DNA of 14,025 bases from a virus (Duplodnaviria; Heunggongvirae; Uroviricota; Caudoviricetes): the IMG/VR virus record IMGVR_UViG_2600255005_000005. One strand, written 5' to 3'. Positions 1 through 13,930 of this stretch are shown here, piece after piece. How positions within the stretch are numbered: position 1 is the stretch's first letter; each line of letters starts with the position of its first letter. The notes beneath the pieces are model-generated. The model was not told where the DNA came from and did not search any database. It saw only the letters and a program-made list of their open reading frames with translations. A program made the translations under genes and the position numbers.

Positions 1-1479
1 ATGCTGGAAACCGCCTTTCAGGGCGTGAATGCGGTTATTGGCAGTATCAGCAATCTGTTCAGAGATGATGACGAACCGCCAGCGGCGGAGTATATCGCGG
101 AAGGCGCTCGGGATGTGCGTATCAACAGCCAGCCGGCGGCACGCAGCGGGGCACGCTGTACCTGTGAGGCCCGGGTGGTGAATGAGCCGGGGGACGGGGC
201 GTTTGTGTCACCGGATGTCCGCATTGGGGGGTCGTTACTGGTGGTCAGGGATATCAGAAGCGGCAGGTCGCAGATAACCCTGGTGGCAACCGTGGCGCTG
301 ATGTTTCTCCGCCCGGGCAAAATGCTTTCTAAAATCGCCTGTTTTGCTGCCGGTGTCGGGATGAGCATGATAACACAGAAGGCCATCAGCGCCCTTCCAC
401 ATCCGGTCAACGCCGCCACCGGAGCCAAATATCTGGCGGATGACGACGATTTCGACTTCAGCCTGCCGGGTCACTTTCCGCTGGACTGGCAGCGTGTGTA
501 CAGCAGTCGTGACGAGCGCACGGATGGGATGTTCGGTCAGGGCTGGAGTGTGATGTATGAAGTGAGCCTCGAGCGCACACCGGGTAACGCGGACGAAAAC
601 TGCATGACCTTTGTGTCGGGTATGGGGCGACGCCTGGATATGGAAGCCGTGCTGCCGGGGAGCGGGTTTTACAGTCCCGGTGAAGGACTGGCAGTACGGC
701 GTGGTGAGCAGGGGCACTGGCTTATCAGCAGCGATGATGGACAGTTTTTTCTGTTTGAAGCCGACCCGCATCACCCGCAGCGCCAGCGGCTGAAAATGCT
801 GGGCGACCGTAACAGCAACTGTCTGAATCTGTACCACGACGAGCTGGGGCGCATCACGCAAATCAGTGGTGAACAGCGGCGTCCGTGCATCCGTCTGCAT
901 TACGACCTGGCGGCGCATCCCCGTCGGGTGACGCAGATTTATCAGCATTTCCCTGATACTGCACCTTTACTGCTGCGTCGTTACAGTTATGACGCCGCCG
1001 GGCAGCTGACCGGCGTGTACGACAGTACCGGCCACCTGCTGCGCGAGTTTGCCTACAACGATAATCACTGCATGACCCTGCACCGCCAGCCGGGCGGCGA
1101 GGGATATTATTATCAGTGGGGCTGGTATGACGGTCCGGATGACGCAGCGTGGCGGGTGACGGGGCACCACACGGACAGCGGTGAACAGTACCGGCTGGCG
1201 TGGAACCTGGCGGCGCGCAGGCTGTGCGTGACGGACGGTCTGGGGCGCACGCGTTATCATCAGTGGGATGCGCAGAACCAGGTGACGGCGTACCGGGACG
1301 AGGCCGGGCAGGTGATGACGTTCCGCTGGAGCGACGAAGAACGGCTGCTGCTGGGGATGACCGATGCTCAGGGCGGCAGATGGCGCTATGTGTATGACCG
1401 TCAGGGGCATATCACGGAGACGCACGACCCCAGCCACACCAGTGCTATAGCGGGATATCCAGACTGCATGAGCAATTGA
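1..1479 (+). CDS. Rhs-family (YD-repeat) protein, N-terminal fragment with PAAR-like region and hydrophobic segment; truncated relative to full-length Rhs (~1400 aa); 5' end may lie outside the window
   Basis: GC-rich ORF running from the window edge. Contains the Rhs N-terminal signature (LPGHFPLDWQRVYSS...GMFGQGWSV, compare RhsA LPGPLPFILSRTYSS...GVFGPGW) and YD repeats (YDAAGQLTGVYDSTGHL, YVYDRQGHITETHDP). Upstream are a QPAAR motif and a hydrophobic stretch (ITLVATVALMFL...IACFAAGVGMSMI). The last ~13 codons look non-Rhs. Confidence 0.7.
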   Translation: MLETAFQGVNAVIGSISNLFRDDDEPPAAEYIAEGARDVRINSQPAARSGARCTCEARVVNEPGDGAFVSPDVRIGGSLLVVRDIRSGRSQITLVATVALMFLRPGKMLSKIACFAAGVGMSMITQKAISALPHPVNAATGAKYLADDDDFDFSLPGHFPLDWQRVYSSRDERTDGMFGQGWSVMYEVSLERTPGNADENCMTFVSGMGRRLDMEAVLPGSGFYSPGEGLAVRRGEQGHWLISSDDGQFFLFEADPHHPQRQRLKMLGDRNSNCLNLYHDELGRITQISGEQRRPCIRLHYDLAAHPRRVTQIYQHFPDTAPLLLRRYSYDAAGQLTGVYDSTGHLLREFAYNDNHCMTLHRQPGGEGYYYQWGWYDGPDDAAWRVTGHHTDSGEQYRLAWNLAARRLCVTDGLGRTRYHQWDAQNQVTAYRDEAGQVMTFRWSDEERLLLGMTDAQGGRWRYVYDRQGHITETHDPSHTSAIAGYPDCMSN

Positions 1480-1495
1480 TTCATCACGCAGCCGT

Positions 1496-2902
1496 TCATT
1501 CACGGTTTGCATCATTGATTTCCATCAGCATTACACTCTGATTTTTTAATTCATCGATCACTTCCTCTGGACGGGAATCCTGATCGATAAATTTCAACGC
1601 CTGCAACACCCGAACCGCATCAATCTGACGTATATCACCGCCCTGACGCAATGACTGAACAGCCAGCGCGGAGGATGAGTCAAACACCTGGGCAGATACA
1701 TCCAGTTCAGTGCGCACATCCACATTGCCACCGCAACTCTCTCCGCTCCATTCCGCCATTATCTGGAGAATATTATCGAGGGCATCTTCGAGGGAGTTCG
1801 CCATTGTATAAAGCGGCGAGTGTTCCTGCATCCGCTCTTCATTAGTCTGATCAACAGATTTGGTGGATGTATTTTCAGCCCGCAGAAGTTTAGCGCCGGC
1901 ATGACGCATCTGATTTTCCAGCTTCTCAAGTGATGTTTCGCCAGATTCTATCGCTGCGCCACTATGTTCAACATATTCGAGGCCATTTTTTGTTCTGTCC
2001 TCAAAAATCGTAGCGGTGGATGCACCAACCGTCAGTTCTTCATTCCTGTCCAGCCCGTAGGCCACCAGCAATGGAACGCGGGCAACATGAAGAATATTGT
2101 CCTGCTCGCTCTGGCTTTGCCAGTGCTTGATATTCAGCAAGCCAAGATTAAGCAATGGCGGTGTACCACGCATAAACCCTGTTTTCTTCGTATACAGTGT
2201 TACCAGAGGAATATCATCACGGCTGGTATTCCATGACTCATGAAGCATCCAGACAGATTCGCCATTAGTACCTTCGCTGCGTCGATAAATTTCTACTCGA
2301 CGGGGCATAATATGGCGGATCTGCTCCACCTTCTTCTGCCCGAAATCATCACCATCAATAATGATGACCTCTTTTATACGCAAATCAGTGAGAACAACTT
2401 TCCCTTTTTCAACTTTCGATTTCCATCCAATAACCTGGCGTGGATTCAGCATCGTAACGTACGGGCGACCACCGGCCGCGTTTTCATCGGCTTTTGTCCG
2501 AATCTCGTTCATATCCGTTCGTGGATAGTCCACCAGCGCATGTGCCACACCATACTGAAATGCGAGACTGAAAAATTGCTGCGCCCACACATCCAGTCGG
2601 CTCCCCTCCATGTCGATATTTTCTGCATATTCCCTGATTTTTTCCGGCGTTTCCTCACTCAATACTGTCGGCTCTGCAAATATTCGCCCAATATTTTGTT
2701 TGATGCTTTCTTCATACACAGGAAGTAGCGTAGCCACAGACAGGCGTTTTTTATAAGCGTCTTCATCTTCATTAGGCCATTTGGGGAGATAATTTTCCCC
2801 CTGCCTGCGCATTTCAAGCGTACCGCCCATCAGTGCGTCGTTAATATCCCACGCCTCCAGCATATCGTTATAGTCGAGGTTGGGTGTTGATATATCAGCC
2901 AT
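1496..2902 (-). CDS. putative phage portal protein (called by position immediately downstream of terL)
   Basis: 468-aa acidic protein. ATG at 2902 lies 2 nt after the terL stop (2905-2907). Gene order terS-terL-third gene is the canonical place for portal. No diagnostic motif recognised. Confidence 0.45.
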   Translation of the reverse strand: MADISTPNLDYNDMLEAWDINDALMGGTLEMRRQGENYLPKWPNEDEDAYKKRLSVATLLPVYEESIKQNIGRIFAEPTVLSEETPEKIREYAENIDMEGSRLDVWAQQFFSLAFQYGVAHALVDYPRTDMNEIRTKADENAAGGRPYVTMLNPRQVIGWKSKVEKGKVVLTDLRIKEVIIIDGDDFGQKKVEQIRHIMPRRVEIYRRSEGTNGESVWMLHESWNTSRDDIPLVTLYTKKTGFMRGTPPLLNLGLLNIKHWQSQSEQDNILHVARVPLLVAYGLDRNEELTVGASTATIFEDRTKNGLEYVEHSGAAIESGETSLEKLENQMRHAGAKLLRAENTSTKSVDQTNEERMQEHSPLYTMANSLEDALDNILQIMAEWSGESCGGNVDVRTELDVSAQVFDSSSALAVQSLRQGGDIRQIDAVRVLQALKFIDQDSRPEEVIDELKNQSVMLMEINDANRE

Positions 2903-2904
2903 AA

Positions 2905-4215
2905 TTAAATCCGAAGTGATGTGACTCTTCCGGTCGGTTTGACAATAGGGAATTGCTTAACGATGAAATAACCTCCGGCATCATTCGGGTGATCATTGCC
3001 AGATTTTTTATCAGGCTCCCCCTTATCATCCCAGACCTGTTGCTCCAGAGATTCGGCATATACCGGACAACGCTTCACATTAACTTTATAGCGACGCTCA
3101 CCATTGGCATTGCAGAACATTGCATTCATTGAGTTAACGCGATCTTTTACTGGCGGGTTCGAGCTGTTCACCACAACGTTAAAACCTGCCTGCTTAAGCT
3201 GGGCTATATCCGTCGTACTTGCGTTACTTGATTTTCTGGAATCTCCGGAAGCATCTGGATAAATATAAATCTCCCTCACTTTCCGGTAATCATGCCCGTC
3301 ATACGGCCAGAAGCGTTCTTTAATGATGCGGATCATATCCGGCGTATCGTAGGCATTGATGATTTCAGTTACCGCACATGGAAGCCCCAAACGCAGCACA
3401 TGGACGATTCCCGCCATCTTTCCAACGTTAAAATCCATCCCAATATAAATCGGCTCCCCTGGCTGCTCCACTTCTTCGCAATTATTCAGTTTCCGGTCAA
3501 ACTGATGGTAAACAGTACCACTTGTCAGGTTAGTAAACTGTCCTCGCAGATAGGCTTTAATCAGCTCTGGAGGGTATGATTCAAGAAGCGAAGGAATGTA
3601 ATCTGCTGGCAGGTTCTTTTCATTATCGAAAGTAGATGCCTGCACCAGACCATACAGTGAGGCCAGCTCTGTTTTTTCACGCACGGCTTTAACAAACTGC
3701 TCGTAGACAAATTTGAATCCTTCCGGCGTGGTTGTAACGTCAATACCGTTGCGAAGTCCATCAATCTTATAACGCATACGCGCAATTATCTTGCGCCACG
3801 CCGTTCTGGCTTTTTCCTTCGGCAAAATGTCCAGTTCATCCACCAACGCATTACCAATTTTGAAACCGACGATCGTTTGTGGCTTCTCCATCGATCTGCA
3901 GATAGTGGTTCCCCGATACTGGCGTCCGTAATAAAAGTGAACCTCTTTATTTCCCTCATTAATTTTTACGTTCAATCCCCAGTCAGCAGCAACTTCTTCC
4001 ACTGTAGGGTAAAAAATATCGCGAATTTGGGGATACGTTGGCGCAAAATATCCCTGATTTATACCTGGATGCTCCCAAATCCCCTTGCATATGCCGCCAC
4101 ACCCAACCCATGTTTTGCCCGAGCCAAAACCAGCAATATAGGCTTTAAATTTATGGGGCATTGAAAGAAATCGCGCCTGAGGCACATTAAGCGTCGGAGA
4201 GATCATCTTCATCAC
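2905..4215 (-). CDS. terminase large subunit (ATPase/nuclease)
   Basis: Walker A AGFGSGKT and Walker B-like LVDELD, with a C-terminal acidic nuclease-like region (IYIGMDFN, YIYPDASGD). Start is ambiguous among ATGs at 4215, 4212 and 4206; AAGGAG precedes them and favours 4212. Overlaps the terS 3' end. Confidence 0.85.
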   Translation of the reverse strand: MMKMISPTLNVPQARFLSMPHKFKAYIAGFGSGKTWVGCGGICKGIWEHPGINQGYFAPTYPQIRDIFYPTVEEVAADWGLNVKINEGNKEVHFYYGRQYRGTTICRSMEKPQTIVGFKIGNALVDELDILPKEKARTAWRKIIARMRYKIDGLRNGIDVTTTPEGFKFVYEQFVKAVREKTELASLYGLVQASTFDNEKNLPADYIPSLLESYPPELIKAYLRGQFTNLTSGTVYHQFDRKLNNCEEVEQPGEPIYIGMDFNVGKMAGIVHVLRLGLPCAVTEIINAYDTPDMIRIIKERFWPYDGHDYRKVREIYIYPDASGDSRKSSNASTTDIAQLKQAGFNVVVNSSNPPVKDRVNSMNAMFCNANGERRYKVNVKRCPVYAESLEQQVWDDKGEPDKKSGNDHPNDAGGYFIVKQFPIVKPTGRVTSLRI

Positions 4216-5281
4216 TCCTTACTCTGGCATCAACCACATTAATATTGATCGCCACAGGCTGGGGATGTTCATTATCTTCCACCGTTTCGATCTCTTTGCG
4301 CAGCTTCTGGTTTTCCATTCTGCGCCGTTCAATTTCCAGTTCCTGTAGCCGCTTATCTGCACATAAAGCCCCGCCAGCAGAAAGCAAACGCAACAATTCA
4401 CGCCGGGCGGCAGCCTTATCCTCCAGCAGGATCTCAACGCCGAATTTTCCGAATTTTGCCCCTGCATATAATTGCCGCGCATCCCCATCAAGCAGAGTGG
4501 TATCAGCCATATAAAGCTGTCCCGTTCCCTCACCGCAGCACTTCGGGCAGTCCGGATTGGGTATGGCGTTATCAACAAAGCCGAGGCCTCCATATTCCGG
4601 TTCGGGTTTGCCATCTCTGGAAGCCTGCGCCGCTGCCTTGTCGAATTCTGCTATATCGCGCCACTGGTAGAGATGATTCTCGCCCCAGCAATAACGGCAG
4701 TTAACACGGCGAAATTGTGCAAGCTGATTGGGGTCGGCCAGGACAATGGCCATCAACTGACTCACTAGTAAATCCAGGTCTGCGGTATAGCGTTTCTGGT
4801 ACTGATTGCGGAAGTAGCTGATAGCGCGAAAAACCCTGGCATTTCTAAGCATACGACTGGCGTTGCTGTTAGCTGTCGCACCTTGCCCCTCATAACCGGC
4901 TAGTCGGTACGCCTCTGTCGGCTTTTTACCCTGAGCAACAAGCATCGCAAACTTAGCCTGCTGGTCAGAAATGCCGAATTCATCGGGACAGAACGAAAAT
5001 TCCTCCGCGTCGCCCTCATTCAGGCCCGCATCGAATACTGGCTTTTTTTCCTGAGATTTTTCGTTCCGCTTTTGTGCAGTCTGCGTAGATTTTTTCTGCG
5101 CACTTTTTTGCGCAGTTTTGCGCATTTCTGTCTGCGCATTTTTCGGAGTTTTTTTGATGTAACGACGGGCTGTTGCGTAATTCAGTCCCCTTGCTTCACA
5201 CCATGCCACCGGAGATATACCGGAGCGGGTGTATTCAGCAATATACTCCTGCTGCAACGCCCCCCAGTCCGGTCTGCTCAT
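4187..5281 (-). CDS. terminase small subunit-like DNA-binding protein (unusually long, 364 aa)
   Basis: N-terminal HTH-like region (GISPVAWCEARGLNYATARRYIKK), a Lys/Gln-rich low-complexity linker, a terminase-small-like segment (KKPTEAYRLAGYEGQGATANSNASRMLRNARV), a Cys cluster (CRYCW...CPKCCGEG) and a C-terminal coiled-coil-like tail. Sits immediately upstream of terL with overlap. Confidence 0.6.
   Translation of the reverse strand: MSRPDWGALQQEYIAEYTRSGISPVAWCEARGLNYATARRYIKKTPKNAQTEMRKTAQKSAQKKSTQTAQKRNEKSQEKKPVFDAGLNEGDAEEFSFCPDEFGISDQQAKFAMLVAQGKKPTEAYRLAGYEGQGATANSNASRMLRNARVFRAISYFRNQYQKRYTADLDLLVSQLMAIVLADPNQLAQFRRVNCRYCWGENHLYQWRDIAEFDKAAAQASRDGKPEPEYGGLGFVDNAIPNPDCPKCCGEGTGQLYMADTTLLDGDARQLYAGAKFGKFGVEILLEDKAAARRELLRLLSAGGALCADKRLQELEIERRRMENQKLRKEIETVEDNEHPQPVAININVVDARVRSDEDDLSDA
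5073..5138. repeat. phased array of palindromic hexamers TGCGCA (4 perfect plus TGTGCA and TGCGTA), each followed by a T-tract, at ~10-14 bp spacing inside terS
   Basis: Read directly: tgtgca(5073), tgcgta(5082), tgcgca(5097), tgcgca(5109), tgcgca(5119), tgcgca(5133). Confidence 0.6.
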
Positions 5282-5284
5282 CAG

Positions 5285-5536
5285 TTAGTCCTGATTTTTA
5301 TCCACCCTGAGTAGTTCGCGCAGAGCAAAGGCATCCCCTTTTCTGGCAAGCTTAAACAATGCCGCTCGTAACTCGGCTTCACCTTTCGCTCTGCCCTTAC
5401 GGATGGCCGCATAAAAATCTGTCATTGCTTCCCGATTTTCTTTCAGTCGGTTCAGATCAACATCCAGAACGTCAGCGATTTGTTGTGCAGTCATCCGGCA
5501 CGCTGCCAGAGACTCGACTTTCGAATACGGAATCAT
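5285..5536 (-). CDS. hypothetical small protein (83 aa), possible DNA-binding helper of packaging
   Basis: ATG at 5536 preceded by GGGGTGA. Stop lies 3 nt before the terS start. Basic, helical composition. Confidence 0.45.
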   Translation of the reverse strand: MIPYSKVESLAACRMTAQQIADVLDVDLNRLKENREAMTDFYAAIRKGRAKGEAELRAALFKLARKGDAFALRELLRVDKNQD

Positions 5537-6404
5537 TTGTCACCCCCATTGATATGCAGGGTGTCTTCTTCCTGTATTTTTCGTGAAGGATTTTTACTGC
5601 AGCGTTGTTCCAGGTGACCTGATGGTGAATGCGTTTATGGCTGGCACCCATCAGTGAAATTTTTACGCACGACGGCGCATACATGACGGAGTAAAAACTT
5701 TTAACGTAGGTTCCGGAATCCAGATACAGCTCGGTCATTCCGCCGCTGTTTTTCTGCGTCTGTTTCTGCCCTAACTGGACAGCACCGATCGTCATAAACA
5801 ATTCACCACAGCGACCGAGATTCGTGTACGTATTCACATCCTCGTTAATGCGCCCCATGAATGAGAACGGTCGATCAACCGAACAGATAAAGCTGTTCAT
5901 TGCCTTGCGTTTCACCCACGAAGCATGGCCGCCATTGTCACCAAGAAAATCCCCGCCCTGCGACATAGCGATGGAAAGAGCAGGTATTGATTCGTAGTAC
6001 GCCAGCATTTCAGAAAGGATCGCATCCAGTTTCCTTATCGGAAAATAGGCCTGGTCATAGTTGCGATCCACCCGAAACTGGAACTCGTGATAATCATCAT
6101 CGAGCTGAATGAAGTATTTACACCCGACCAGTTTTGCCAAGTCGAAACAGGCATTACGGGCGTAAAAAATTGAGCGGCGGTCACAGAAATTATCGGCTTC
6201 GTCAAAACGACTGGCGATATCGGCTTTGGAAAACACCAGCACCTGTTCACCAAATTCAGCCATGTACTGATGCCGTGTCTTATCTTCATCATCAACAACG
6301 ATAAAAATTTTCCCGGTATAGCCAGCACGACGCAACGTCCGGTAAGTCAGAACTTTGTCCGGTCGCCCGTGAGTCAGAATAAAGGCGCAAAAATCATCAC
6401 GCAT
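5472..6404 (-). CDS. hypothetical protein with GT-A-fold glycosyltransferase-like motifs (soluble, ~310 aa)
   Basis: Ordered motifs FILTHGRPD, IFIVVDDED and FIQLDDDYHEF (DxD), with no hydrophobic TM segment. Preferred start is the ATG at 6404 (MRDDF), which overlaps the ParB-like stop as ATGCGTGA and is preceded by GGAGGAGGA; the longest ORF would start at 6425. Confidence 0.5.
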   Translation of the reverse strand: MRDDFCAFILTHGRPDKVLTYRTLRRAGYTGKIFIVVDDEDKTRHQYMAEFGEQVLVFSKADIASRFDEADNFCDRRSIFYARNACFDLAKLVGCKYFIQLDDDYHEFQFRVDRNYDQAYFPIRKLDAILSEMLAYYESIPALSIAMSQGGDFLGDNGGHASWVKRKAMNSFICSVDRPFSFMGRINEDVNTYTNLGRCGELFMTIGAVQLGQKQTQKNSGGMTELYLDSGTYVKSFYSVMYAPSCVKISLMGASHKRIHHQVTWNNAAVKILHEKYRKKTPCISMGVTNDSVFESRVSGSVPDDCTTNR

Positions 6405-7188
6405 ATTCCTCCTCCTCACCACCATGCATGATCTCCACCATGCGCTGCGTCATCCGGACAAATCCATTTTCAATAGCCTGCTGATAATCAATGATCACCA
6501 GCGCCGACTCCTCGAAAAAACACTGAATTTCAGCGGGGGCGTGAGCGTAATAGTCCGCAATTCTGCTGAAATTAAACACCGTGTGACGTTCTGCCGCACA
6601 CAGGAGGAATTTCTCAATATCAGGCTCAAGGGAAGCCAAACGTATCCGGCTGATCAGCTCCTGCGTTTTCGTATCGTCGTACAGTTCACTGATATCCGGT
6701 TTACCGCCCGACGGCTCATAAACAGGCGTATCAATTTTCGTCGTATACGGCTCCTCCTCATTTCCTGTACCGGGCAAAACATCCGTCAACAGTTCATCAA
6801 TTTCTGTCGGGATGAAGCCTGTCAGGGAGACATCAAAATCAGCATTGATTAGGTCCGACAGCTCCATCCGCAACAGATCTTCATCCCAGCCAGCATTCAT
6901 CGGCAGGCGATTATCTGCCAGGCGGTACGCCTTTTTCTGCTCATCCGTCAGGCCAGACAGAACAATGACCGGAACAGAATCCATTTTGAGCATTTCAGCC
7001 GCCATAACACGACCGTGACCCGCAATAATTTCGCCCTTTTCGTCAATCAGCACCGGATTAGTCCAGCCGAATTGCTTAATACTTTCTACCAGTTGTGCCA
7101 CCTGCTCAGGGCTGTGCGTCCTGGCGTTGTGCGCATACGGTGACAATTCTTGTAATGGGCGATAGACTATCTTTAATTTCTCGCTCAT
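6397..7188 (-). CDS. ParB-like nuclease domain protein
   Basis: ParB/Srx N-terminal signature (NPVLIDEKGEIIAGHGRVMAA) followed by an acidic C-terminal half. ATG at 7188 with AAGGA just upstream. Confidence 0.75.
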   Translation of the reverse strand: MSEKLKIVYRPLQELSPYAHNARTHSPEQVAQLVESIKQFGWTNPVLIDEKGEIIAGHGRVMAAEMLKMDSVPVIVLSGLTDEQKKAYRLADNRLPMNAGWDEDLLRMELSDLINADFDVSLTGFIPTEIDELLTDVLPGTGNEEEPYTTKIDTPVYEPSGGKPDISELYDDTKTQELISRIRLASLEPDIEKFLLCAAERHTVFNFSRIADYYAHAPAEIQCFFEESALVIIDYQQAIENGFVRMTQRMVEIMHGGEEEEYA

Positions 7189-7202
7189 ACATCCTTGCTT
7201 TA

Positions 7203-7240
7203 TGAATAAAACGCACCCCAGCAGCCAGTGCTACTGGGGG
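7203..7240 (-). terminator. candidate intrinsic terminator downstream of trkG
   Basis: On the minus strand a ~10-bp stem hairpin (CCCCAGUAGC / GCUGCUGGGG, 4-nt loop) is followed by UGCGUUUUAUU. Confidence 0.4.
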
Positions 7241-7325
7241 CGGAGGTGTTGCTGGTAAAGTTAGGTATTGGATCAATGAGTGAGTCAACATAATATTAAA
7301 CTCACAATTATAAATCAGCCATATA

Positions 7326-8783
7326 TTAGGAGCGCCAAAAAAAACCTGAAAACAATATAATAACAGGATAAATTTCAAGGCGACCAAGAATCATAGCTAT
7401 GCACATTAAATATTTTGCAATGTCATTAAGCACTCCGAATGACGATGCAGTAGCCCCAAAACCTAATCCCATATTATTAATACATGCAGCCACTGTTGCA
7501 AATGATGTAAGAAAATCATATCCCATACCATTTAACACCAGTATAAAAAACACCGTGAAGAGAGTATAAAGAAAAAAGAAACTCCATACAGACCTCATTA
7601 CACGATCTGTAACTATCTTCCCTCCTACATTTACACTCAACAACGCTCTGGGATGAGAAAGCTGATTTATCTCGTGTTTGCTTTGTTTGAAAAGTATAAG
7701 AAATCGAAGTGACTTAATTCCACCACAAGTTGAACCTATACATCCCCCAAAGAAACTTGACAACAGCAAAAACACTATCGTGTGCGTGGGCCAGCTTGCA
7801 TAATCCTGCGTAGCTAAACCATTATCAGTGAGCATGGAGCTGGCAAGAAAAAACGAATGAATAAAACTTCCATGCAAGTCATACATACCTATATGCCAGA
7901 CCTGGAAAGAGGTAACAATGATCACCCCTAAGGCTATTAACAGAAAGAAACGAAGTTCAATATCTCTGATTAAAGGTTTTATCGTTTTCCTGCTAATAAC
8001 AATATACCAAAGAGTGAAGTTGAAAGCCGATAGCAGGGAAAAAGAACCAGCCACCAGCTCAACCAAATAGTTATTAAAATATCCGATACTCTCGCTATGA
8101 GTTGAGAAACCACCAAGCGAAACTGTGGAAATCCCGTGACAAATAGCATCAAACAAAGGCATTCCTGCAAGTCTATAACAGACAATACAAGCAATACCTA
8201 ATAAAGAATAAGTTATCCACAGTGTCCGTGACGTATCGGCCAGGCGGGGAGTGAGTTTGTCATCCTTAAATGGCCCCGGCATTTCTGACTGATAAAGCTT
8301 TGCACCACCAATACCCAATAATGGCAATACAGCAACCGCCAGAACAATAACTCCTAAACCACCTATAAAATTTAACTGTGACCGATAGTACAAATATGCC
8401 CGAGGTAATGAACTAACATCATCAATTACAGTTGCTCCTGTTGTTGTTATTCCAGAAACCCCTTCAAACAGAGCATCAATGAACGTTAAATTAAGTTCTG
8501 AGTCAATCCATAAAGGGAATGCACTAATAACAGAAAACAAAATCCAAAACATTACAATTATAATAAACCCATCACGGGTACGTAATTGAATGCCAGATTT
8601 CTTAGTTGTATACCACGCTCCGCCACCAATGCAAAAAAATATAACGAAAGTTATAAAGAAAACGAATAGGCTTTTTTCTTTATAAAACAATGCTACAACC
8701 ATTGGTGGCAACATTGAAAGACTATAGAGCCAAACCAGGAACCCACACATATGAGTAACAACTCTTACATGAGATGTATTCAT
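7326..8783 (-). CDS. trkG: TrkG-type potassium uptake protein (Trk/Ktr/HKT family membrane transporter), prophage moron
   Basis: Multi-pass membrane protein whose sequence matches what I recall of E. coli Rac-prophage TrkG (MNTSHVRVVTHMCGFLVWLYSLSMLPP...), with repeated pore-loop glycine motifs. Strongly AT-rich relative to its flanks. First ATG at 8783; an in-frame TTG at 8801 has AAGGTGG 6 nt upstream and is an alternative start. Confidence 0.9.
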   Translation of the reverse strand: MNTSHVRVVTHMCGFLVWLYSLSMLPPMVVALFYKEKSLFVFFITFVIFFCIGGGAWYTTKKSGIQLRTRDGFIIIVMFWILFSVISAFPLWIDSELNLTFIDALFEGVSGITTTGATVIDDVSSLPRAYLYYRSQLNFIGGLGVIVLAVAVLPLLGIGGAKLYQSEMPGPFKDDKLTPRLADTSRTLWITYSLLGIACIVCYRLAGMPLFDAICHGISTVSLGGFSTHSESIGYFNNYLVELVAGSFSLLSAFNFTLWYIVISRKTIKPLIRDIELRFFLLIALGVIIVTSFQVWHIGMYDLHGSFIHSFFLASSMLTDNGLATQDYASWPTHTIVFLLLSSFFGGCIGSTCGGIKSLRFLILFKQSKHEINQLSHPRALLSVNVGGKIVTDRVMRSVWSFFFLYTLFTVFFILVLNGMGYDFLTSFATVAACINNMGLGFGATASSFGVLNDIAKYLMCIAMILGRLEIYPVIILFSGFFWRS

Positions 8784-8920
8784 ATCTAAATATTCTTTCA
8801 ATTATAACCACCTTGCTGCAATATTATGATTATACTGTATAAAATTTAACTCCTCTTAGATCTTACTTCACTGTTCCTTATGAAACAATCATCAAAATGA
8901 ATCATATTGTAGTTAAGATT

Positions 8921-9385
8921 TTACTTTAAACACTGTTCGGTTATGTATTGCTGAGCACCTTCAAGTTGGGCCTGCATCATTACCAGTCGTTCCCGGAGGG
9001 TGAAATAATCCCGTTCAGCGGTGTCTGCCAGTCGGGGGGAGGCTGCATTATCCACGCCGGAGGCGGTGGTGGCTTCACGCACTGACTGACAGACTGCTTT
9101 GATGTGCAACCGACGACGACCAGCGGCAACATCATCACGCAGAGCATCATTTTCAGCTTTCGCATCAGCTAACTCCTTCGTGTATTTTGCATCGAGCGCA
9201 GCAACATCACGCTGACGCATCTGCATGTCAGTAATTGCCGCGTTCGCCAGCTTCAGTTCTCTGGCATTTTTGTCGCGCTGCTCTTTGTAGGCGGTGGCGT
9301 TATCACGGTAATGATTAACAGCCCATGACAGGCAGACGATGATGCAGATAACCAGAGCATAAATAATCGCGGCGACTCTGCTCAC
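8921..9385 (-). CDS. Rz-type i-spanin (lambda Rz-like)
   Basis: Near-identical over most of its length to lambda Rz as I recall it ([21 protein letters not shown]...[33 protein letters not shown]...). GTG start at 9385 overlaps the lysozyme TGA stop (GTGA); the longest ORF begins at a TTG at 9400. Confidence 0.85.
8980..9165 (-). CDS. Rz1-type o-spanin lipoprotein, embedded in the +1 frame of Rz
   Basis: Signal peptide plus lipobox (LPLVVVGC) and a proline-rich mature part ([24 protein letters not shown]), matching lambda Rz1. Lies entirely within Rz. Confidence 0.85.
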
Positions 9386-9921
9386 TGATCTATCCCCCAA
9401 CAGGCTAATGCGCTTTCCTGGTCACGACGAATAACCTGTCCATAGCAGTTATTTGAACGTATGCGGCAATCGCGCCCACCATCTTTTATCCACCAGCGAA
9501 TCGCCTCGCATGCACCCTTACGATCACCGGCATTCAGCCGCTTATAAAACGTCGACGGGAAACACTTACCGGGGCCAATGTTATAGGGACAAAATGACGC
9601 TATACCCGCTTTCTGTGGTTCGGTCAGTGGTACTTTAATATTGCGCTCCACCCATGCCAGCGCCTTATCACGTTCAATAGCGTTAACCTGGTCGCATTTT
9701 TCCTTCGACAGCCTCATTCCCGGTATGACGGGCTTACCATCCACCATTGTGGCACCACGACAGATGGTCCATATACCGGAACCATCGCGGTATGCCGTTG
9801 TGTGGTTACCTTCTTTTTCATCCAGAAACTGGTCGAGAATATCAGGCGCAGGCGCAGGCGCACCGACGGCAATCAGTGCCAGAACGGCAGCCGACAGGCC
9901 GTATCTGATTTTTGCGTTCAT
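9382..9921 (-). CDS. phage lysozyme (GH24-like), probably SAR-type endolysin, resembling Qin RrrQ/YdfQ
   Basis: Catalytic E-x8-D-x5-T arrangement ([18 protein letters not shown]). N-terminal weakly hydrophobic Ala/Gly-rich segment ([20 protein letters not shown]) fits a signal-arrest-release domain. Partnered with an S21-type pinholin. Confidence 0.85.
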
Positions 9922-9981
9922 GGATATTTATCAGGATTTATCGGTTTCTGAACCCTGGATATGTTTATCTGTCCCGGCCTG

Positions 9982-10012
9982 TTGAATCAGGCAAGGAATA
10001 GTTAAATACAAT
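9982..10012 (+). promoter_or_regulatory. candidate sigma70 promoter for the plus-strand 90-aa gene
   Basis: TTGAAT (9982-9987) and TACAAT (10007-10012) with a long 19-bp spacer, followed by SD AGAGAGGA and the ATG at 10027. Confidence 0.25.
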
Positions 10013-10026
10013 AGAGAGGATTGTTT

Positions 10027-10299
10027 ATGGACAATAGCACCATTTCTCTACAGGAGTTGCTCGACTGCATTTCCAAGCTTCGGGATGATGTAAATGCCCT
10101 TACTGTCGCATTTTCATATCTGGCATTCTCAATTCCCAAGGAACAAATGCAACCAACACTGGCATCGCTCCAGCTTGAATCACTCAACCCCAAATGGTCC
10201 CAGCAACAACAAAATTCTTTCAAGTGGCTGGCGGTATTACTGGAAGAAAAATATGCTGGTGAAATTACCATTTCGGCGGAGTCTTCAGTGAACCAGTAA
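10027..10299 (+). CDS. hypothetical protein (90 aa), antisense-oriented gene inserted inside the lysis cassette
   Basis: ATG at 10027 with SD AGAGAGGA 7 nt upstream; helical E/K/L-rich composition. Its 3' end overlaps the 3' end of the convergent 114-aa gene by 35 nt. The ORF track's 10021 start is a TTG. Confidence 0.5.
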   Translation: MDNSTISLQELLDCISKLRDDVNALTVAFSYLAFSIPKEQMQPTLASLQLESLNPKWSQQQQNSFKWLAVLLEEKYAGEITISAESSVNQ

Positions 10300-10609
10300 T
10301 TCTTCCCGGCAGTTTTCCTTTGTAGGTTATCCACACACCCTGCGCCTCTAAAATTATGGGGCGCTTTTCCGGTGACTGCTCATCCCCTTCACATAACCCT
10401 GCAGCAACATCCAGGAAGACCTGTCTGATGCTCCTTCTGGCTGCTGCCTCATAAAACTCCAGCGCGGCACCTTCAACACGGTCCAGCGAGATGTCCAGGT
10501 CTAAAATTTCACCGTCAAAGCGTTTTTTGTCCCGTAACGCTAAAGTTACCGTAACTTTATTCTCAAAATTGCGGATCCCTTTCACAATCAGTTCATAGTT
10601 TTGAGTCAT
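10265..10609 (-). CDS. hypothetical lysis-cassette protein (114 aa), in the position of Qin ydfR between holin and lysozyme
   Basis: ATG at 10609 lies 4 nt after the holin stop, with GGGGAGAG upstream, so it is translationally coupled to the holin. Soluble, charged protein. Confidence 0.6.
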   Translation of the reverse strand: MTQNYELIVKGIRNFENKVTVTLALRDKKRFDGEILDLDISLDRVEGAALEFYEAAARRSIRQVFLDVAAGLCEGDEQSPEKRPIILEAQGVWITYKGKLPGRITGSLKTPPKW

Positions 10610-10613
10610 TGAA

Positions 10614-10829
10614 TTACTCTCCCCGTGCAGCCTTACGCTTATCTTCTTTAATCTTGAAATAAAGATTTGTCAGATACGTCAACAGGCCAAACACCAGACT
10701 ACCCAGCACACCTATTGCTGCCCACTGTGAGGGCGTGACTCTATCGAGCAACTGTAAAAACCAGTAGCCAGCACTGCCTGCGGAGGTGCCATAGGCGACA
10801 CCTGTTGTTAACTTATCCATGGATTTCAT
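10614..10829 (-). CDS. class II holin (phage 21 S / EssQ-EssD type pinholin) with dual-start motif
   Basis: [71 protein letters not shown] closely matches S21 as I recall it: two TM segments, a Met1-Lys-Ser-Met4 dual start and a charged C-terminus. The upstream in-frame extension to 10922 is rejected. Confidence 0.85.
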
Positions 10830-11168
10830 AACCCCCACCTCGCAGATGCGGGCGCTGTGTAATGGAAACAAAAAATGGCCACCAGCGGCCCGTAAAAAAC
10901 ACCCCGTCAAAAGCACCGGCATCCGCAGATGCCCTTTGCGTGGCGTTATTTGATGCGCGCCAGGTGTGGCGCAAAGAAATGAAATAAGACTTATCGAAAA
11001 TTAAGGTTAATTTGATGATTTAAACCACTTCTGAAGCTTAGTAGTATGAACATGTCCCCAGAAGGGGCCAATACTTATTATTCTTCATGGACTTTGTCCC
11101 GCGGTCTTAATCCGACGACCGCGCTACTTTTCACCCTCTCGCAAATTGCTATCTAAAGGACGTTGTCC

Positions 11169-11201
11169 CACGAGTATTCCTGTATGCTCGTGTCTTTTTT
11201 T
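11169..11201 (+). terminator. candidate plus-strand intrinsic terminator
   Basis: CACGAG...CTCGTG stem with a long 12-nt loop, followed by TCTTTTTTTTG. Confidence 0.3.
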
Positions 11202-11212
11202 GTCCTGAGAAA

Positions 11213-11243
11213 GGAATAAAAAAAACCGCCAGATATGGCGGTT
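11213..11243 (-). terminator. strong minus-strand intrinsic terminator
   Basis: On the minus strand AACCGCCA-UAUC-UGGCGGUU (8-bp stem, 4-nt loop) followed by UUUUUUUUAUU. Confidence 0.55.
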
Positions 11244-11605
11244 GGTCAATGCAAGGGATGAATTTTTTAATTGTTATTAAACCGAGGCGTCGGGTGCCTC
11301 CCGAAGTATTCCGTGCTGCATGGATACTGTGGTTTCCCGCTAAACCGACTCTTTAAACCACCCTCGCACTGAGGAGCGCCTCTGTGGTGCTTTTACAACA
11401 CCAAAATGATGCATCACCGACCCTGCCAGGAAATACAAAATCTCCACCGATAATGCACCATTCTGCTGCCGTAAAAAATTAGCACTGAGGCTACACCCGG
11501 CCTCAAATCATAGCCAGAGAACAGAATGCTTTTTCAAAACAACCTGCTCCCACGTAATAAAAAAATACGCCAGTGCCGTAATACAATAAGGCTTGTTTTA
11601 AATGC

Positions 11606-11680
<75 letters not shown>

Positions 11681-11683
11681 ATA

Positions 11684-11759
<76 letters not shown>

Positions 11760-11777
11760 ATTGGTTCTTCAGGGGAG

Positions 11778-11803
11778 CGATATCACCGAGCGATATCACC
11801 GAG
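11778..11803. repeat. perfect tandem direct repeat, 2 x 13 bp (CGATATCACCGAG)
   Basis: Read directly; lies 18 nt upstream (transcript sense) of the tRNA-Thr 5' end. Confidence 0.6.
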
Positions 11804-12004
11804 CAAAGAAGAGTTCCCCCTCAGAACCGTTTTCGATGATACGATTTAATATTCCAATCGCAACAACACTTTGCGTCAAGCTATGTAAATTTATTTATGT
11901 ATTTTTATTTTATGTGAACATTTCACCTTCACTTAAAATATACGCGACAATATATAAACAAATTTATTTTGAAGGCAATATTAAATGTCGTTTCTTATAT
12001 CACA

Positions 12005-12040
12005 CCATAATAACAACAAAACCCGCTTGATGGCGGGTTC
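12005..12040 (-). terminator. candidate tR'-like intrinsic terminator downstream of the Q-like gene
   Basis: On the minus strand AACCCGC-CAUCAA-GCGGGUU followed by UUGUUGUUAUUAU, about 85-120 nt downstream of the Q-like stop. Confidence 0.45.
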
Positions 12041-12091
12041 TATTAAAGTTTAATTGCGCTTGATTCGCCTCGCGATACAGCTTTGCGAAGC

Positions 12092-12128
12092 GTAGCAAAA
12101 TTGAAGCAGTTTACGCGTAAAAAATCAA
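12092..12128 (-). promoter_or_regulatory. candidate late promoter (PR'-like) at the 3' end of the Q-like gene
   Basis: On the minus strand TTGATT, a 17-nt spacer, then TTCAAT. Weak hexamers; the call leans on the position between Q and the terminator. Confidence 0.2.
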
Positions 12129-12667
12129 GCCGTTTTTTGAGCGAATGATTCTCGCATGGGAATGTATAGCGCATACTCAGCAACGGCCAACCAATTAGCA
12201 ATTCGCTTTTCGCATGTGCTAAAACACCACTCTGGGTGTGCATCATTTAGCAATTCAGCCATTTTGCGTTTGGTCATCCCCCGCCCCTCATACCGTTGCC
12301 GAAGGACGCTAATCAATCCTGGATGCTCTGCCAGCACCTCACTTATGACCCGATCAATACATAACGCCTCTGCATCAGTACAATGCGCCAGCCAGCTCTT
12401 TTGCTTGCCGTTGATCATCTCTCTCAAAAACGCTTCCAGCTCAGCTTTCTCTATTCCCGCTTTTTTCATTCTGCGCAGGGCTTCATTGATGGCTGTTTTC
12501 GTCAATTTTTTGGATGCCAACAACTGATTGAACATATTTCCTGACCTGCCACCGCCAATATACGACCAGCGCCCCCACATACGCAGTTTGCCCTGAATCC
12601 AGACACTTTCCAGCGTGGCGAGACGAAGGTGTTCTCCGCTTTTTCCTGTATTCGTTGGGTAAATCAC
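12125..12667 (-). CDS. putative late antiterminator Q-like protein
   Basis: Last gene of the nin-like cluster, immediately upstream of the terminator/tRNA/lysis region. GTG start at 12667 overlaps the upstream TGA (GTGA) and has AAGGAGGG 7 nt upstream. Contains an N-terminal W-G-x-W motif and Cys residues. The longest ORF to 12787 would overlap the upstream gene by 124 nt. Confidence 0.5.
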   Translation of the reverse strand: MIYPTNTGKSGEHLRLATLESVWIQGKLRMWGRWSYIGGGRSGNMFNQLLASKKLTKTAINEALRRMKKAGIEKAELEAFLREMINGKQKSWLAHCTDAEALCIDRVISEVLAEHPGLISVLRQRYEGRGMTKRKMAELLNDAHPEWCFSTCEKRIANWLAVAEYALYIPMRESFAQKTA

Positions 12668-12954
12668 AAATATCCCTCCTTTCTCCAGATTTCTTGTGTG
12701 CGAAAAACACCTTCTGCATGCATCAGGCGTAATTCTTCTTTGGTGTAATCGCTGGTTTTTACCCGCCCGTCGATTAGATCGTGGCATGAGCTACAGGCAA
12801 TCGCCGCCTGCATATCGTGTGGTTTTGTCGCTATTCCGCACGTTCCCGCCAGTCGGTAATGCGCCAGCACAGACGTTTCCGGATCGTGATTGCAGTAGCC
12901 AGGAATTCTGACGGTGCACATCTGCCCCCGCGCCGCTTTACGTAAATCCACCAT
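12664..12954 (-). CDS. DUF1364-family protein (YbcO-like putative nuclease of lambdoid nin regions)
   Basis: 96 aa, MVDLRKAARGQMCTVRIPGYCNHDPETSVLAHYR...IACSSCHDLIDGR, with the conserved Cys pattern I recall for DLP12 YbcO. Its ATG overlaps the upstream stop (TAATG). Confidence 0.7.
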   Translation of the reverse strand: MVDLRKAARGQMCTVRIPGYCNHDPETSVLAHYRLAGTCGIATKPHDMQAAIACSSCHDLIDGRVKTSDYTKEELRLMHAEGVFRTQEIWRKEGYL

Positions 12955-13553
12955 TACGCAAACTCCAGCAGCTGCGCGGCCACATTTTCGACTTGTTCCG
13001 GAGAGGAAAATTTACGGAACAGAATCCAGTTCCACAGCACATTCAGAACAGATTTATAAACCTGCTGAAACTCGGTTTCGTCCATATTCGCAAAAGCGAT
13101 GGATTTCGCCCGACGCCCATGGCTACCGTCCGGATAAAAATGTTCGGTGTAAAATCCAGCCTGAATGGTTACCCACTCGCGAAAAGCCTCAAACGACTTT
13201 AGCAATGCCGTATCCCGAGTTCTGCGTGTCGCAACTGTATTCAGATATTGCTCTGCGGCATCACTCAGGGCTGGCGTGTGTTCCCGACCAACTGATTCGC
13301 ACAGGTAATCAACGAAACCAGACAGCAGTTCTCGTTCGCGAGGCGTGATCGCCCCACCGACCGGAGTCCAGTAATCGAATCCCAGTTGCAGGAGTTTGAA
13401 AAAACGCTTGTGGAATGCGTAGTTACGCACACGCTTAAAGTCTGCGTGTATCCACTCACCTATTTTGATTTGATGCAGAAAATCGCAACTCTCCGGCGTC
13501 GCCGGGAGAAGTAAACCAGAAGAGGTTTGTTTGACCAGTTGTATATGCGCCAT
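12954..13553 (-). CDS. lambdoid nin-region protein of unknown function (possibly DUF1367-like)
   Basis: 199-aa ORF with ATG at 13553, translationally coupled to the downstream DUF1364 gene. Family assignment is from memory of the sequence style (KRVRNYAFHKRFFKLLQLGF...) and is tentative. Confidence 0.6.
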   Translation of the reverse strand: MAHIQLVKQTSSGLLLPATPESCDFLHQIKIGEWIHADFKRVRNYAFHKRFFKLLQLGFDYWTPVGGAITPRERELLSGFVDYLCESVGREHTPALSDAAEQYLNTVATRRTRDTALLKSFEAFREWVTIQAGFYTEHFYPDGSHGRRAKSIAFANMDETEFQQVYKSVLNVLWNWILFRKFSSPEQVENVAAQLLEFA

Positions 13554-13828
13554 TTCTCAATCTCTCGATGGCGCAGTGCAGCAGATGCCAGTTGTTCAGG
13601 CTGACGTATAAAGTATAAATAAACTGGTTCCAGTGTAAAGCCCCCACATTGATGGAATAAAAATCAAACAATAGATTGCTGGGATAAAAATACAACGCTT
13701 ATTATTAAAAGCGGTTAGACAAATTAAATTTTAATGTTATGCAAATCTGCCAGATTAGCATAATATCTCATTTGAAAACCGCTGAAATAACAATCTTATC
13801 AGGATTAATCATATTAAGGTGAGTAAAT

Positions 13829-13915
13829 ATGGAAAACAACAAATCTGCACATTACGCTCCTTTTTTATCTATAATACTTTTTGTATTTTGTTGTGTATGG
13901 GCGGTATTTTTATAA
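13829..13915 (+). CDS. candidate small hydrophobic peptide (28 aa, MENNKSAHYAPFLSIILFVFCCVWAVFL)
   Basis: SD AGGTGA 5 nt upstream of the ATG. Polar N-terminus followed by one hydrophobic helix-length segment. TAA stop lies 15 nt before a perfect 14-bp inverted repeat. Below the ORF track's length cutoff. Confidence 0.3.
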   Translation: MENNKSAHYAPFLSIILFVFCCVWAVFL

Positions 13916-13930
13916 AACACACCCACAAAT

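Follow-up and report, generated by a model that had tools for sequence, protein, structure and literature searches.

The paradigm of pinholin/SAR-endolysin lysis is phage 21 (OL657228), in which S, R and Rz overlap directly, with neither ydfR nor an antisense ORF, and bor follows Rz. RzRz1 spanins are used by both lambda and phage 21 (PMC6139136), and identity between the two phages reaches 97.4% for Rz and 98.3% for Rz1. SAR endolysins are recognised by a weakly hydrophobic, Gly/Ala/Ser/Thr-rich N-terminal TMD that follows 1–3 basic residues; one of them, R of the Stx2 phage 933W, has been used experimentally as a SAR endolysin by the Young laboratory, and Mu gp25 aids its release (PMC9239132). 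The 933W holin belongs to the S21 family and begins MYQM. Two Escherichia coli K-12 prophages are also close to the locus described here. Qin has the order essQ-ydfR-rrrQ-rzpQ/rzoQ, with the ydfR stop overlapping the rrrQ ATG. In Rac, a deletion has fused ydaW to about codon 9 of Rz, and of the lysis cassette only a stub of rzpR (a pseudogene) and rzoR is kept.

We analysed a 14,025-nt stretch of DNA (the window; IMG/VR record IMGVR_UViG_2600255005_000005), which very probably carries an intact lysis cassette from the late operon of a lambdoid E. coli prophage of the Rac type. The identity of the genes, the joints and their distribution were computed directly in this analysis, and the functional roles of the cassette genes are predicted from homology to characterised systems. 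The features are as follows.

12125..12667, minus strand: Q-like late antiterminator (DUF1133; PF06576, PF06530, phrog_753)
10877..12045, minus strand: Q-to-S leader (hairpins and two tRNAs)
10829..10614, minus strand: pinholin S (PF04971)
10609..10265, minus strand: ydfR-family gene (DUF1327; PF07041, phrog_406)
10027..10299, plus strand: 90-aa ORF (phrog_2411)
9921..9382, minus strand: lysozyme R (PF00959)
9844..9903, minus strand: SAR-like segment and Ala-Pro linker, lysozyme codons 7–26 (hydropathy, composition)
9382..9385, minus strand: GTGA overlap of the Rz start and the lysozyme stop (alignment, BLAST ends, identity scan)
9385..8921, minus strand: Rz (PF03245)
9165..8980, minus strand: Rz1 (PF06085)
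7326..8783, minus strand: trkG (PF02386)

The initial annotation had placed the holin, lysozyme, Rz and Rz1 genes correctly, all four on the minus strand, and its labels of pinholin, SAR-type lysozyme and embedded lambda-family Rz/Rz1 are upheld by family matches and sequence features. The lysis set is not one contiguous S-R-Rz block: 691 bp (9922-10613) separate the holin stop from the lysozyme start, and the initial annotation had omitted the ydfR gene and the convergent ORF, both of which lie in that interval. The minus-strand order is Q-like gene, leader (terminators and two tRNAs), S, YdfR, R, Rz/Rz1 and trkG, with the small convergent ORF beside YdfR on the plus strand. All six ORFs of the cassette are open.

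E. coli prophages whose annotation reads essD/YdfR family protein/lysozyme/lysis protein/trkG match positions 1431-13917 of the window at 99.7% identity, and these relatives carry ydaV, ydaT and DUF1627 (ydaW-like) genes upstream. The potassium transporter gene trkG, a landmark of Rac-type prophages, lies directly downstream of Rz (PF02386 E=3.8e-144, GC 0.34-0.42), the position held by bor in phage 21. K-12 Rac is the same locus: synteny is kept around rzpR-rzoR-trkG-ynaK, trkG, rzoR and most of Rz are common to both, and the match extends over window positions 6935-9358 (2424 nt) at 99.4% before it breaks inside Rz. Q, the tRNAs, S, ydfR, the antisense ORF and R, all taken by the K-12 deletion, are kept in the window.

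Upstream of the cassette, the antiterminator gene matches PF06576 (E=1e-106), PF06530 (E=5e-6) and phrog_753, ‘anti-termination protein Q-like’. Its leader contains five terminator-like hairpins (12045-12014, 11506-11485, 11243-11224, 10933-10918 and 10890-10877), along with tRNA-Thr(TGT) at 11759-11684 and tRNA-Gly(TCC) at 11680-11606. This parallels the phage 21 layout of Q, pR', terminator, two tRNAs and S. An Rfam search over 8700-12300 returned the two tRNAs alone above threshold; a sub-threshold STnc100 match (22 bits vs 47) was discounted. A sigma-70 consensus scan for the late promoter gave 6 matches against 5.7 expected, no better than shuffled sequence.

The holin is a 71-aa member of PF04971, ‘Bacteriophage P21 holin S’ (E=4.8e-35, 119.8 bits vs a cutoff of 26). 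It is 93% identical to K-12 EssQ, 85.9% to S21 over all 71 residues (74% at the nucleotide level) and 83% to 933W S; PGAP calls the identical protein EssD in relatives. The MKSM dual start of phage 21 S, which the initial annotation had pointed out, is present as in S21 and EssQ and is preceded by the Shine-Dalgarno sequence GAGGTGGGGG. Judging by the sequence, the S71 antiholin form would start at Met1 and the S68 holin form at Met4 (10820). A search for an sdi-like RNA structure around the dual start gave a fold z-score of –0.58, no better than shuffles. The two TM segments ascribed to the holin were recovered by hydropathy only: a weak TMD1 at residues 8–28 (mean Kyte-Doolittle [KD] 0.55, 57% G/A/S/T) and a clear TMD2 at residues 36–57 (mean KD 1.44), which contains a glycine-zipper-like GxxxSxxxG (G40, S44, G48) conserved with S21.

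The 179-aa lysozyme is a T4-lysozyme-like muramidase (PF00959 E=1.4e-24) with the catalytic motif E37-x8-D46-x5-T52, matching the SAR-endolysin triad E-x8-D/C-x5-T. It is 93.2% identical to K-12 RrrQ and 91.5% to 933W R, whereas with R21 and lambda R the identity falls to 36% and 27%; R21 (3hde, E=1.2e-16) and RrrD (4zpu) are among its sequence matches in PDB. On these identities the enzyme is assigned to the RrrQ/933W-R lineage and not to that of R21, from which it also differs by four extra Cys. The Gly/Ala-rich, SAR-like N-terminus noticed earlier was confirmed: K4 and R6 precede weakly hydrophobic residues 7–21, with 53% G/A/S and a mean KD of 2.0; the corresponding values for the SAR segment of R21 are 65% and 1.99. 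A comparable N-terminal segment is absent from lambda R (maximum KD 0.36). We infer that the lysozyme is a SAR endolysin, tethered until pmf collapse and releasable by the pinholin.

The same residues could also be read as a cleavable Sec signal peptide, in which case secretion of the enzyme would be constitutive and the holin no more than a modulator of it. The n-h-c layout fits such a peptide, with K4/R6, a hydrophobic core at residues 9–19 and small residues in VGA/APA. However, Pro follows every A-x-A type site (VGA|P, APA|P, APA|P), and signal peptidase I cleavage is blocked by Pro at +1. The pinholin partner also argues against constitutive secretion, as the nanometre-scale holes expected of it would be too small for a folded soluble enzyme and would suit a SAR enzyme, and the 91.5%-identical 933W R is in use as a SAR endolysin (PMC9239132). 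We therefore consider cleavage very unlikely and retain the SAR endolysin as the preferred reading.

Codons 7–26 of the lysozyme contain a (GCGCCT)x3 hexamer repeat (TRF 9843-9862: period 6, 3.3 copies). The nearest relatives have 2 GCGCCT copies and a 177-aa lysozyme, and the 3-copy allele found no match in the species-representative genome set or any fetched locus. No recognisable Shine-Dalgarno sequence was found ahead of the lysozyme ATG. Because ydfR ends 343 nt upstream of the lysozyme gene, the Qin-style translational coupling of ydfR to rrrQ is lost here, and the level of endolysin expression is therefore uncertain.

Downstream of the lysozyme, Rz (154 aa, PF03245 E=9.4e-53) is the predicted inner-membrane spanin subunit, with an N-terminal TMD at residues 4–23 (mean KD 2.8), as in i-spanins of this family, which combine such a TMD with a periplasmic coiled-coil domain, and Rz1 (61 aa, PF06085 E=2e-19) is the predicted outer-membrane lipoprotein subunit, with the lipobox VVGC (Cys20), Thr at +2 and an AAGGAG Shine-Dalgarno sequence 7 nt ahead of the gene. 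As the initial annotation described, Rz1 is fully embedded in Rz, in the +1 frame at an offset of 220 nt. It covers 0.47–0.87 of the Rz length, where members of the embedded family usually start at 0.4–0.5 L and end at 0.9–1 L (PMC6139136). The intermolecular disulfides of the lambda spanins involve Rz Cys99 and Cys152 and Rz1 Cys29 (PMC6139136), and all three cysteines are kept at these positions.

The spanin pair had been described as nearly lambda-identical. It is indeed close (Rz 92.2%, Rz1 93.3%), though the wording was slightly generous, and the last ~70 nt of Rz depart from lambda with 60-67% identity in a 30-nt identity scan. The mosaic reading built on this description had been given with a proviso, set beforehand, that equal similarity to the phage 21 spanins would count against it, and this is what alignment gave: identity to phage 21 is 89.5% for Rz and 95.0% for Rz1, and at the nucleotide level the pair is 92.5% identical to lambda and 91.5% to phage 21. 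Up to 9358, the Rz gene matches the rzpR remnant of K-12 Rac at 99.4% nucleotide identity. The 933W Rz and Rz1, equal in length (154 and 61 aa), represent a diverged allele, with identities of 67% and 70%, and the Qin spanins RzpQ (DUF2514) and RzoQ are unrelated, at 27–29% identity (29% for RzpQ).

The Rz start codon GTG and the lysozyme stop codon TGA overlap, as reported initially, in a 4-bp GTGA, and a real joint lies there. By alignment, BLAST ends and a 30-nt identity scan, Qin-type homology stops at the lysozyme stop and lambda/21 homology begins inside the same GTGA. The part of the earlier proposal that did not stand concerns the parents. It saw phage-21-type S and R joined to lambda-type Rz/Rz1 by exchange at the lysozyme/Rz boundary, and the S21-family holin, the 92–93% identity of Rz and Rz1 to lambda and the relatedness break at the R/Rz overlap all speak for it. 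Yet phage 21's own Rz/Rz1 are lambda-type and those of the window resemble them just as closely, the lysozyme is of RrrQ/933W rather than R21 lineage, and the holin is nearer EssQ than S21. As phage 21 natively bears lambda-type spanins, the holin and spanins are not of different ‘types’ and the supposed phage 21/lambda mix is none. We regard a hybrid of those two parents as hardly tenable.

Instead, the alignments identify the joint as that of a Qin-type S-ydfR-R block with a lambda/21-type Rz/Rz1 block. Qin has the same S-ydfR-R order, with S and R each 93% identical to the window's. The lysozyme gene supplies, at its 3' end, the translation start of Rz (Shine-Dalgarno GGGGGA and GTG). The joint was found in 1430 of the 5426 complete E. 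coli genomes; it is old and common, and at the level of sequence the cassette is a routine lambdoid mosaic.

The interval between S and R begins with the ydfR-family gene, whose start lies 4 nt past the holin stop and whose 114-aa product matches PF07041 (DUF1327, E=8e-42) and phrog_406 (E=2.5e-67). Residues 1–69 are Qin-YdfR-like (~87% identity; nucleotide identity 87.7–89.6%), and the nucleotide homology to Qin stops at 10404; Qin ydfR has a different tail, and Qin is without the antisense ORF. The variable segment comprising the ydfR tail and the antisense ORF (9932-10403) lies within the Qin-type block. Among the 322 homologues of the DUF1327/YdfR family, the common core extends to ...SLKTPP and the tails are variable, long variants (176 and 183 aa) bearing an unrelated helical tail. 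The structural model of the window's YdfR has an overall pLDDT of 61 (~75 for the N-terminal beta-beta-beta-alpha domain) and no significant PDB match (best E 0.2); a very weak resemblance to PUR repeats (E=0.25, probability 0.14) was not taken as evidence. Residues 1–72 of K-12 YdfR bind the RNase E catalytic half according to a 2026 report (PMC13232886). Within the family, this binding to the catalytic half has been reported for K-12 YdfR only, and that homologue also co-purifies with RNA.

The plus-strand ORF of 90 aa is convergent with ydfR, overlaps its last 35 nt and is antisense to the late operon. It matches phrog_2411 (E=4.7e-59), and a GAGGA Shine-Dalgarno sequence 7 nt before its start is conserved. 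The ORF stays open in the relatives, with stops in the minus-strand shadow frame there, and its dN/dS is 0.19–0.54. All 63 homologues come from Escherichia or Shigella, save one partial record deposited as Pseudomonas sp., and they are always accompanied by the 113–114-aa YdfR variant behind an S21-type holin; the two genes stay together behind such holins also where lysis genes of an unrelated type follow. The ORF is probably a real small gene, a moron. Searches of Pfam, NCBIfam and PADLOC for its function gave no match, and its model, a three-helix bundle with a pLDDT of 79, found none in PDB or BFVD (best E 2.3 and 0.29). We also considered a minus-strand 110-aa ORF (10334..10002) as a gene or as a frameshifted extension of YdfR and rejected it on account of stop codons in relatives L009–L015; it is the plus-strand ORF's shadow frame, sharing wobble positions with it, and this accounts for its low dN/dS.

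Chlobot (PP925838) shares the S-ydfR-antisense ORF-R block, with 97–98.6% protein identity. As Chlobot is a free-living phage, the layout occurs in a phage isolated on E. coli. In mEp460 (NC_019716), S and R are 98.6% and 96% identical to the window's, YdfR has 104 aa and the antisense ORF is not annotated. The first ~38 residues of Rz are common to the window, Chlobot and mEp460, but in both phages the periplasmic part of Rz, like Rz1, is of a different allele (mEp460 Rz 61%; Chlobot Rz1 34%). A moron within the cassette is also found in 933W, where ant lies between R and Rz, whereas in the window ydfR and the ORF lie between S and R.

The prophage itself is cut short: at ~1431 the portal gene borders on a fragment of an Rhs gene, and head and tail genes that relatives have are missing. 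In the present host, induction of the cassette may never take place. We weighed the reading that it is the inert relic of a decaying cryptic prophage, intact by chance and neither expressed nor functional there. Besides the Rhs cut, K-12 Rac shows that deletion of this region happens, and R is without a Shine-Dalgarno sequence. Against this, the six ORFs have all stayed open, the 99.7% identity to copies in fuller prophages means that any decay is very recent, and the holin dN/dS among relatives is 0.05–0.15, which indicates strong purifying selection. An inert relic is thus a possibility we take seriously but consider doubtful, and we favour an intact cassette.

By analogy with the characterised systems, such a cassette would work as follows. 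Q-modified RNA polymerase would read through the leader terminators, as suggested by homology to phage 21 and 933W, and translation of S from Met1 and Met4 would yield antiholin and holin. The endolysin would be exported by Sec and held tethered and inactive by the weakly hydrophobic stretch at its N-terminus. Small holes made by the pinholin at a set time would depolarise the inner membrane, upon which the SAR segment would exit the bilayer and the enzyme would refold and degrade murein. The Rz-Rz1 complex, spanning the periplasm, would then disrupt the outer membrane.

It is conceivable, though we think it rather unlikely, that YdfR and the antisense 90-aa ORF are a functional lysis accessory and not passive cargo. 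One option is that YdfR may act on late mRNA via RNase E. In another, the prophage would express the antisense ORF or its transcript, and this product may damp read-through into R-Rz-Rz1 or set lysis timing.

The arrangement as a whole is well known, widespread and ordinary, and only the YdfR/antisense-ORF pair, between the genes for the pinholin and the SAR endolysin, has research value. The pair is present in E. coli prophages, Stx-encoding ones included. The locus shows the lysis region of the ancestral Rac prophage, prior to the K-12 deletion, and it corrects a tempting inference: an S21 holin beside ‘lambda-type’ Rz/Rz1 does not make a hybrid, since phage 21 natively has this arrangement. 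It is also a clean case of module exchange between lambdoid phages at a stop/start overlap of 4 bp, in which the upstream gene gives the ribosome-binding site and start codon to whichever spanin module comes next.

ORF listing and family scans of the interval 8921-10829 recovered the four genes of the initial annotation, along with the MKSM start of the holin, an Rz1 frame (+1 relative to Rz) lying entirely within Rz, and a GTGA overlap of the lysozyme TGA stop with the Rz GTG start. That annotation had missed 691 bp with two further ORFs between holin and lysozyme.

Genes of the cassette
10829..10614, minus strand: holin S, 71 aa (PF04971 'Bacteriophage P21 holin S', E=4.8e-35)
10609..10265, minus strand: YdfR, 114 aa (DUF1327, E=8e-42)
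10027..10299, plus strand: opposite-strand ORF, 90 aa (phrog_2411, E=4.7e-59)
9921..9382, minus strand: lysozyme R, 179 aa (PF00959, E=1.4e-24)
9385..8921, minus strand: Rz, 154 aa (PF03245, E=9e-53)
9165..8980, minus strand: Rz1, 61 aa (PF06085, E=2e-19)

The cassette had been read as an S21-type pinholin and a SAR-like lysozyme joined to lambda-type spanins. The comparison set comprised lambda, phage 21 (a fully annotated genome), K-12 Qin and 933W.

Protein identity of the window's products to the comparison set
Holin: phage 21 S21, 85.9%; Qin EssQ, 93.0%; 933W, 83.1%
Lysozyme: lambda, 27%; R21, 36.3%; RrrQ, 93.2%; 933W, 91.5%
Rz: lambda, 92.2%; phage 21, 89.5%; Qin, 29%; 933W, 67%
Rz1: lambda, 93.3%; phage 21, 95.0%; Qin, 27%; 933W, 70%

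The spanins turned out about equally similar to those of phage 21, the very outcome named beforehand as refuting the 21/lambda mosaic. In nucleotides, the Rz region shares 92.5% identity with lambda and 91.5% with phage 21, and the spanins of these two phages are themselves 97.4% (Rz) and 98.3% (Rz1) identical. The window's order, an S21-family holin and then lambda-family spanins, is native to phage 21, and RzRz1 serve lambda and phage 21 alike (PMC6139136).

A module exchange at the lysozyme/Rz boundary was nevertheless real, with sides that are Qin-type and lambda/21-type. By BLAST, Qin-type sequence covered 10833-10404 (87.7%; S and the first ~69 ydfR codons) and 9931-9382 (89.6%; the lysozyme), lambda/21-type sequence ran from 9384/9387 to 8931, and 10403-9932 matched nothing in Qin, lambda, phage 21 or 933W. 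Multiple alignment placed the R/Rz switch inside GTGA, the window tracking Qin through ...GGGGGATAGAtCAGTGA and then lambda/21 from TGAGCAGAGTC. Because the switch lies there, the Rz GTG start and its Shine-Dalgarno-like GGGGGA belong to the lysozyme-side module, which explains why Rz starts with GTG here and with ATG in lambda. A scan of identity in 30-nt windows agreed with this position. Qin identity was 87-100% in most of them down to 9381 and 60-83% in three, one of which, at 9860, bears the repeat; past 9381 it was at most 83%, mostly 47-77%. From 9380, identity to lambda/21 was 83-100%, mostly 90-100%; to lambda it stayed at 100% from 9260 through 9021, a partly dual-coding stretch. It dropped to 60-67% over the last ~70 nt, where the Rz tail is QCLK vs QCR and the Rz1 tail GNDW vs ERG. 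Phages Chlobot and mEp460 match the window over the first ~38 residues of Rz and differ in the periplasmic part of Rz and in Rz1; exchange therefore occurs inside Rz too. The R/Rz joint is widespread: of 5426 complete E. coli genomes, 1430 cover a 301-nt probe centred on it to at least 80%, and the entire 2.4-kb layout is present in 138 genomes.

The lysozyme has the SAR-like N-terminus first proposed for it. K4 and R6 precede a weakly hydrophobic segment (mean Kyte-Doolittle 2.0, 53% Gly/Ala/Ser), comparable to that of R21 (1.99 and 65%), and an Ala-Pro linker follows; lambda R, in contrast, is without a hydrophobic segment. The catalytic motif E37-x8-D46-x5-T52 is intact. Pro follows each A-x-A-like site, which would speak against signal-peptidase processing. 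The SAR segment contains no Cys, so P1-Lyz-type disulfide isomerisation is ruled out, and R21-like conformational control would be the likelier model. The N-terminal segment with its preceding basic residues and the catalytic motif are the SAR criteria of PMC9239132, in which 933W R, 91.5% identical to the window lysozyme, was employed as a SAR endolysin whose release Mu gp25 promotes. A perfect hexamer tandem repeat at 9843-9862 (plus strand CAGGCG x3.3; coding sense GCGCCT x3) gives this allele three GCGCCT hexamers compared to two in its nearest relatives (179 aa vs 177 aa), and thus one more Ala-Pro in the linker. The three-copy allele was found in none of 185,579 species-representative genomes and in no fetched locus.

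The segment between holin and lysozyme holds a YdfR-family protein. Members of this family have in common a core ending ...SLKTPP, beyond which they carry either alternative short tails or a helical extension of 65-72 aa. Wherever the 113-114-aa YdfR variant occurs, the convergent 90-aa ORF is there too (~35 nt overlap), and the pair sits directly 3' of an S21-type holin. This placement is kept with downstream lysis genes of other types (Phage_holin_8, Phage_holin_3_7, Peptidase_M15_4), stx-carrying contigs included. The E. coli contig loci L010 and L011 carry an S21-type holin, ydfR, the 90-aa ORF and then an unrelated second lysis set (Phage_holin_8, Phage_holin_3_7, a Peptidase_M15_4 endolysin), so that a single late region holds two holin systems; L011 also carries stx genes. 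The 90-aa ORF keeps its GAGGA-N7-ATG start and an open frame over ~12% nucleotide divergence, with a dN/dS of 0.19-0.54 indicating only modest constraint. It was modelled as a three-helix bundle (pLDDT 79) that matched no structural relatives; the YdfR model was weak and likewise gave no structural match. A 110-aa minus-strand ORF at 10002-10334, exactly antisense to the 90-aa ORF, was rejected as a shadow frame: it has stops in relatives, and its low apparent dN/dS (0.14-0.29) comes with third codon positions shared with the 90-aa ORF. The only functional lead for the insert comes from the literature: residues 1-72 of K-12 YdfR bind the catalytic half of RNase E, and RNA co-purifies (PMC13232886). 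This N-terminal part is the one conserved in the window's YdfR.

In K-12 Qin the ydfR stop codon overlaps the rrrQ ATG, giving translational coupling, whereas in the window 343 nt separate the ydfR stop from R; the inserted segment has thus abolished coupling of the Qin style. Upstream of the lysozyme ATG, 9922-9960 shows no recognisable Shine-Dalgarno sequence. Chlobot, isolated on E. coli, shares the layout at 97-98% identity, so the layout is evidently compatible with lysis.

Several E. coli chromosomes carry prophages 99.7% identical to window 1431-13917, with the PGAP labels essD, YdfR family protein, hypothetical protein, lysozyme, lysis protein and trkG. K-12 MG1655 Rac is 99.4% identical to 6935-9358, spanning ynaK, trkG, rzoR and Rz to ~codon 9, after which K-12 runs into ydaW. 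From the extent of this match, the window carries the Rac lysis region in undeleted form, K-12 keeping only an rzpR/rzoR stub of it. Lying 5' of the cassette are a Q-like antiterminator (DUF1133/Phage_antitermQ), five terminator-like hairpins, tRNA-Thr and tRNA-Gly, the same order as in phage 21 (Q, pR', terminator, two tRNAs, S), where the tRNAs are tRNA-Asn and tRNA-Thr.

Features of the Q-S leader
11606-11759: tRNA-Thr(TGT)/tRNA-Gly(TCC) pair
11243-11224, minus strand: terminator-like hairpin, 8-bp stem, T8 tail
11169-11192, plus strand: terminator-like hairpin

The two hairpins stand back to back (11169-11243) in the 776-bp tRNA-to-S gap, which is 91 bp shorter in ATCC 8739. An Rfam STnc100 match over 11214-11409 was sub-threshold. 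Directly upstream of the tRNA pair lies a perfect 13-bp tandem repeat, GAGCGATATCACC x2.3, at 11775-11804.

On the other side of the cassette, trkG (7326-8801; GC 0.34-0.42 vs ~0.50 in flanking phage genes) is a classic foreign 'moron', placed where lambda, phage 21 and 933W have bor. The minus strand at 5472-7188, between the terminase genes and trkG, encodes a TET/JBP-associated glycosyltransferase (PF20691 TAGT, E=3.8e-35) and, overlapping it, a ParB-N-domain protein of full length, which in K-12 is truncated as ynaK and which also matches the PADLOC 'MTase_II' model (E=2.6e-38); the two look like a phage DNA-modification pair. At 1-1479 (plus strand), a fragment of an Rhs/PAAR gene (DUF6531, RHS repeats, PAAR; GC-rich, ~60%) adjoins the portal gene near 1431; its identity to E. 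coli rhs genes is only ~93%. This junction was shared by 0 of 5426 complete E. coli genomes, and relatives have minor-head and capsid genes there instead. The prophage thus appears to be cut at ~1431 by a rearrangement involving an Rhs element, which may leave the cassette silent in its host.

The best-supported account would be the canonical pathway, in which Q-dependent late transcription drives the action of pinholin, SAR endolysin and spanin, each step being drawn from close homologues. The locus is a routine lambdoid mosaic: its S/ydfR/R block is Qin-type, its ydfR-tail/antisense-ORF segment variable and its Rz/Rz1 lambda/21-type. It is not new in kind, identical proteins being already annotated in many genomes, and the YdfR/antisense-ORF pair is the sole thread that merits experiment.
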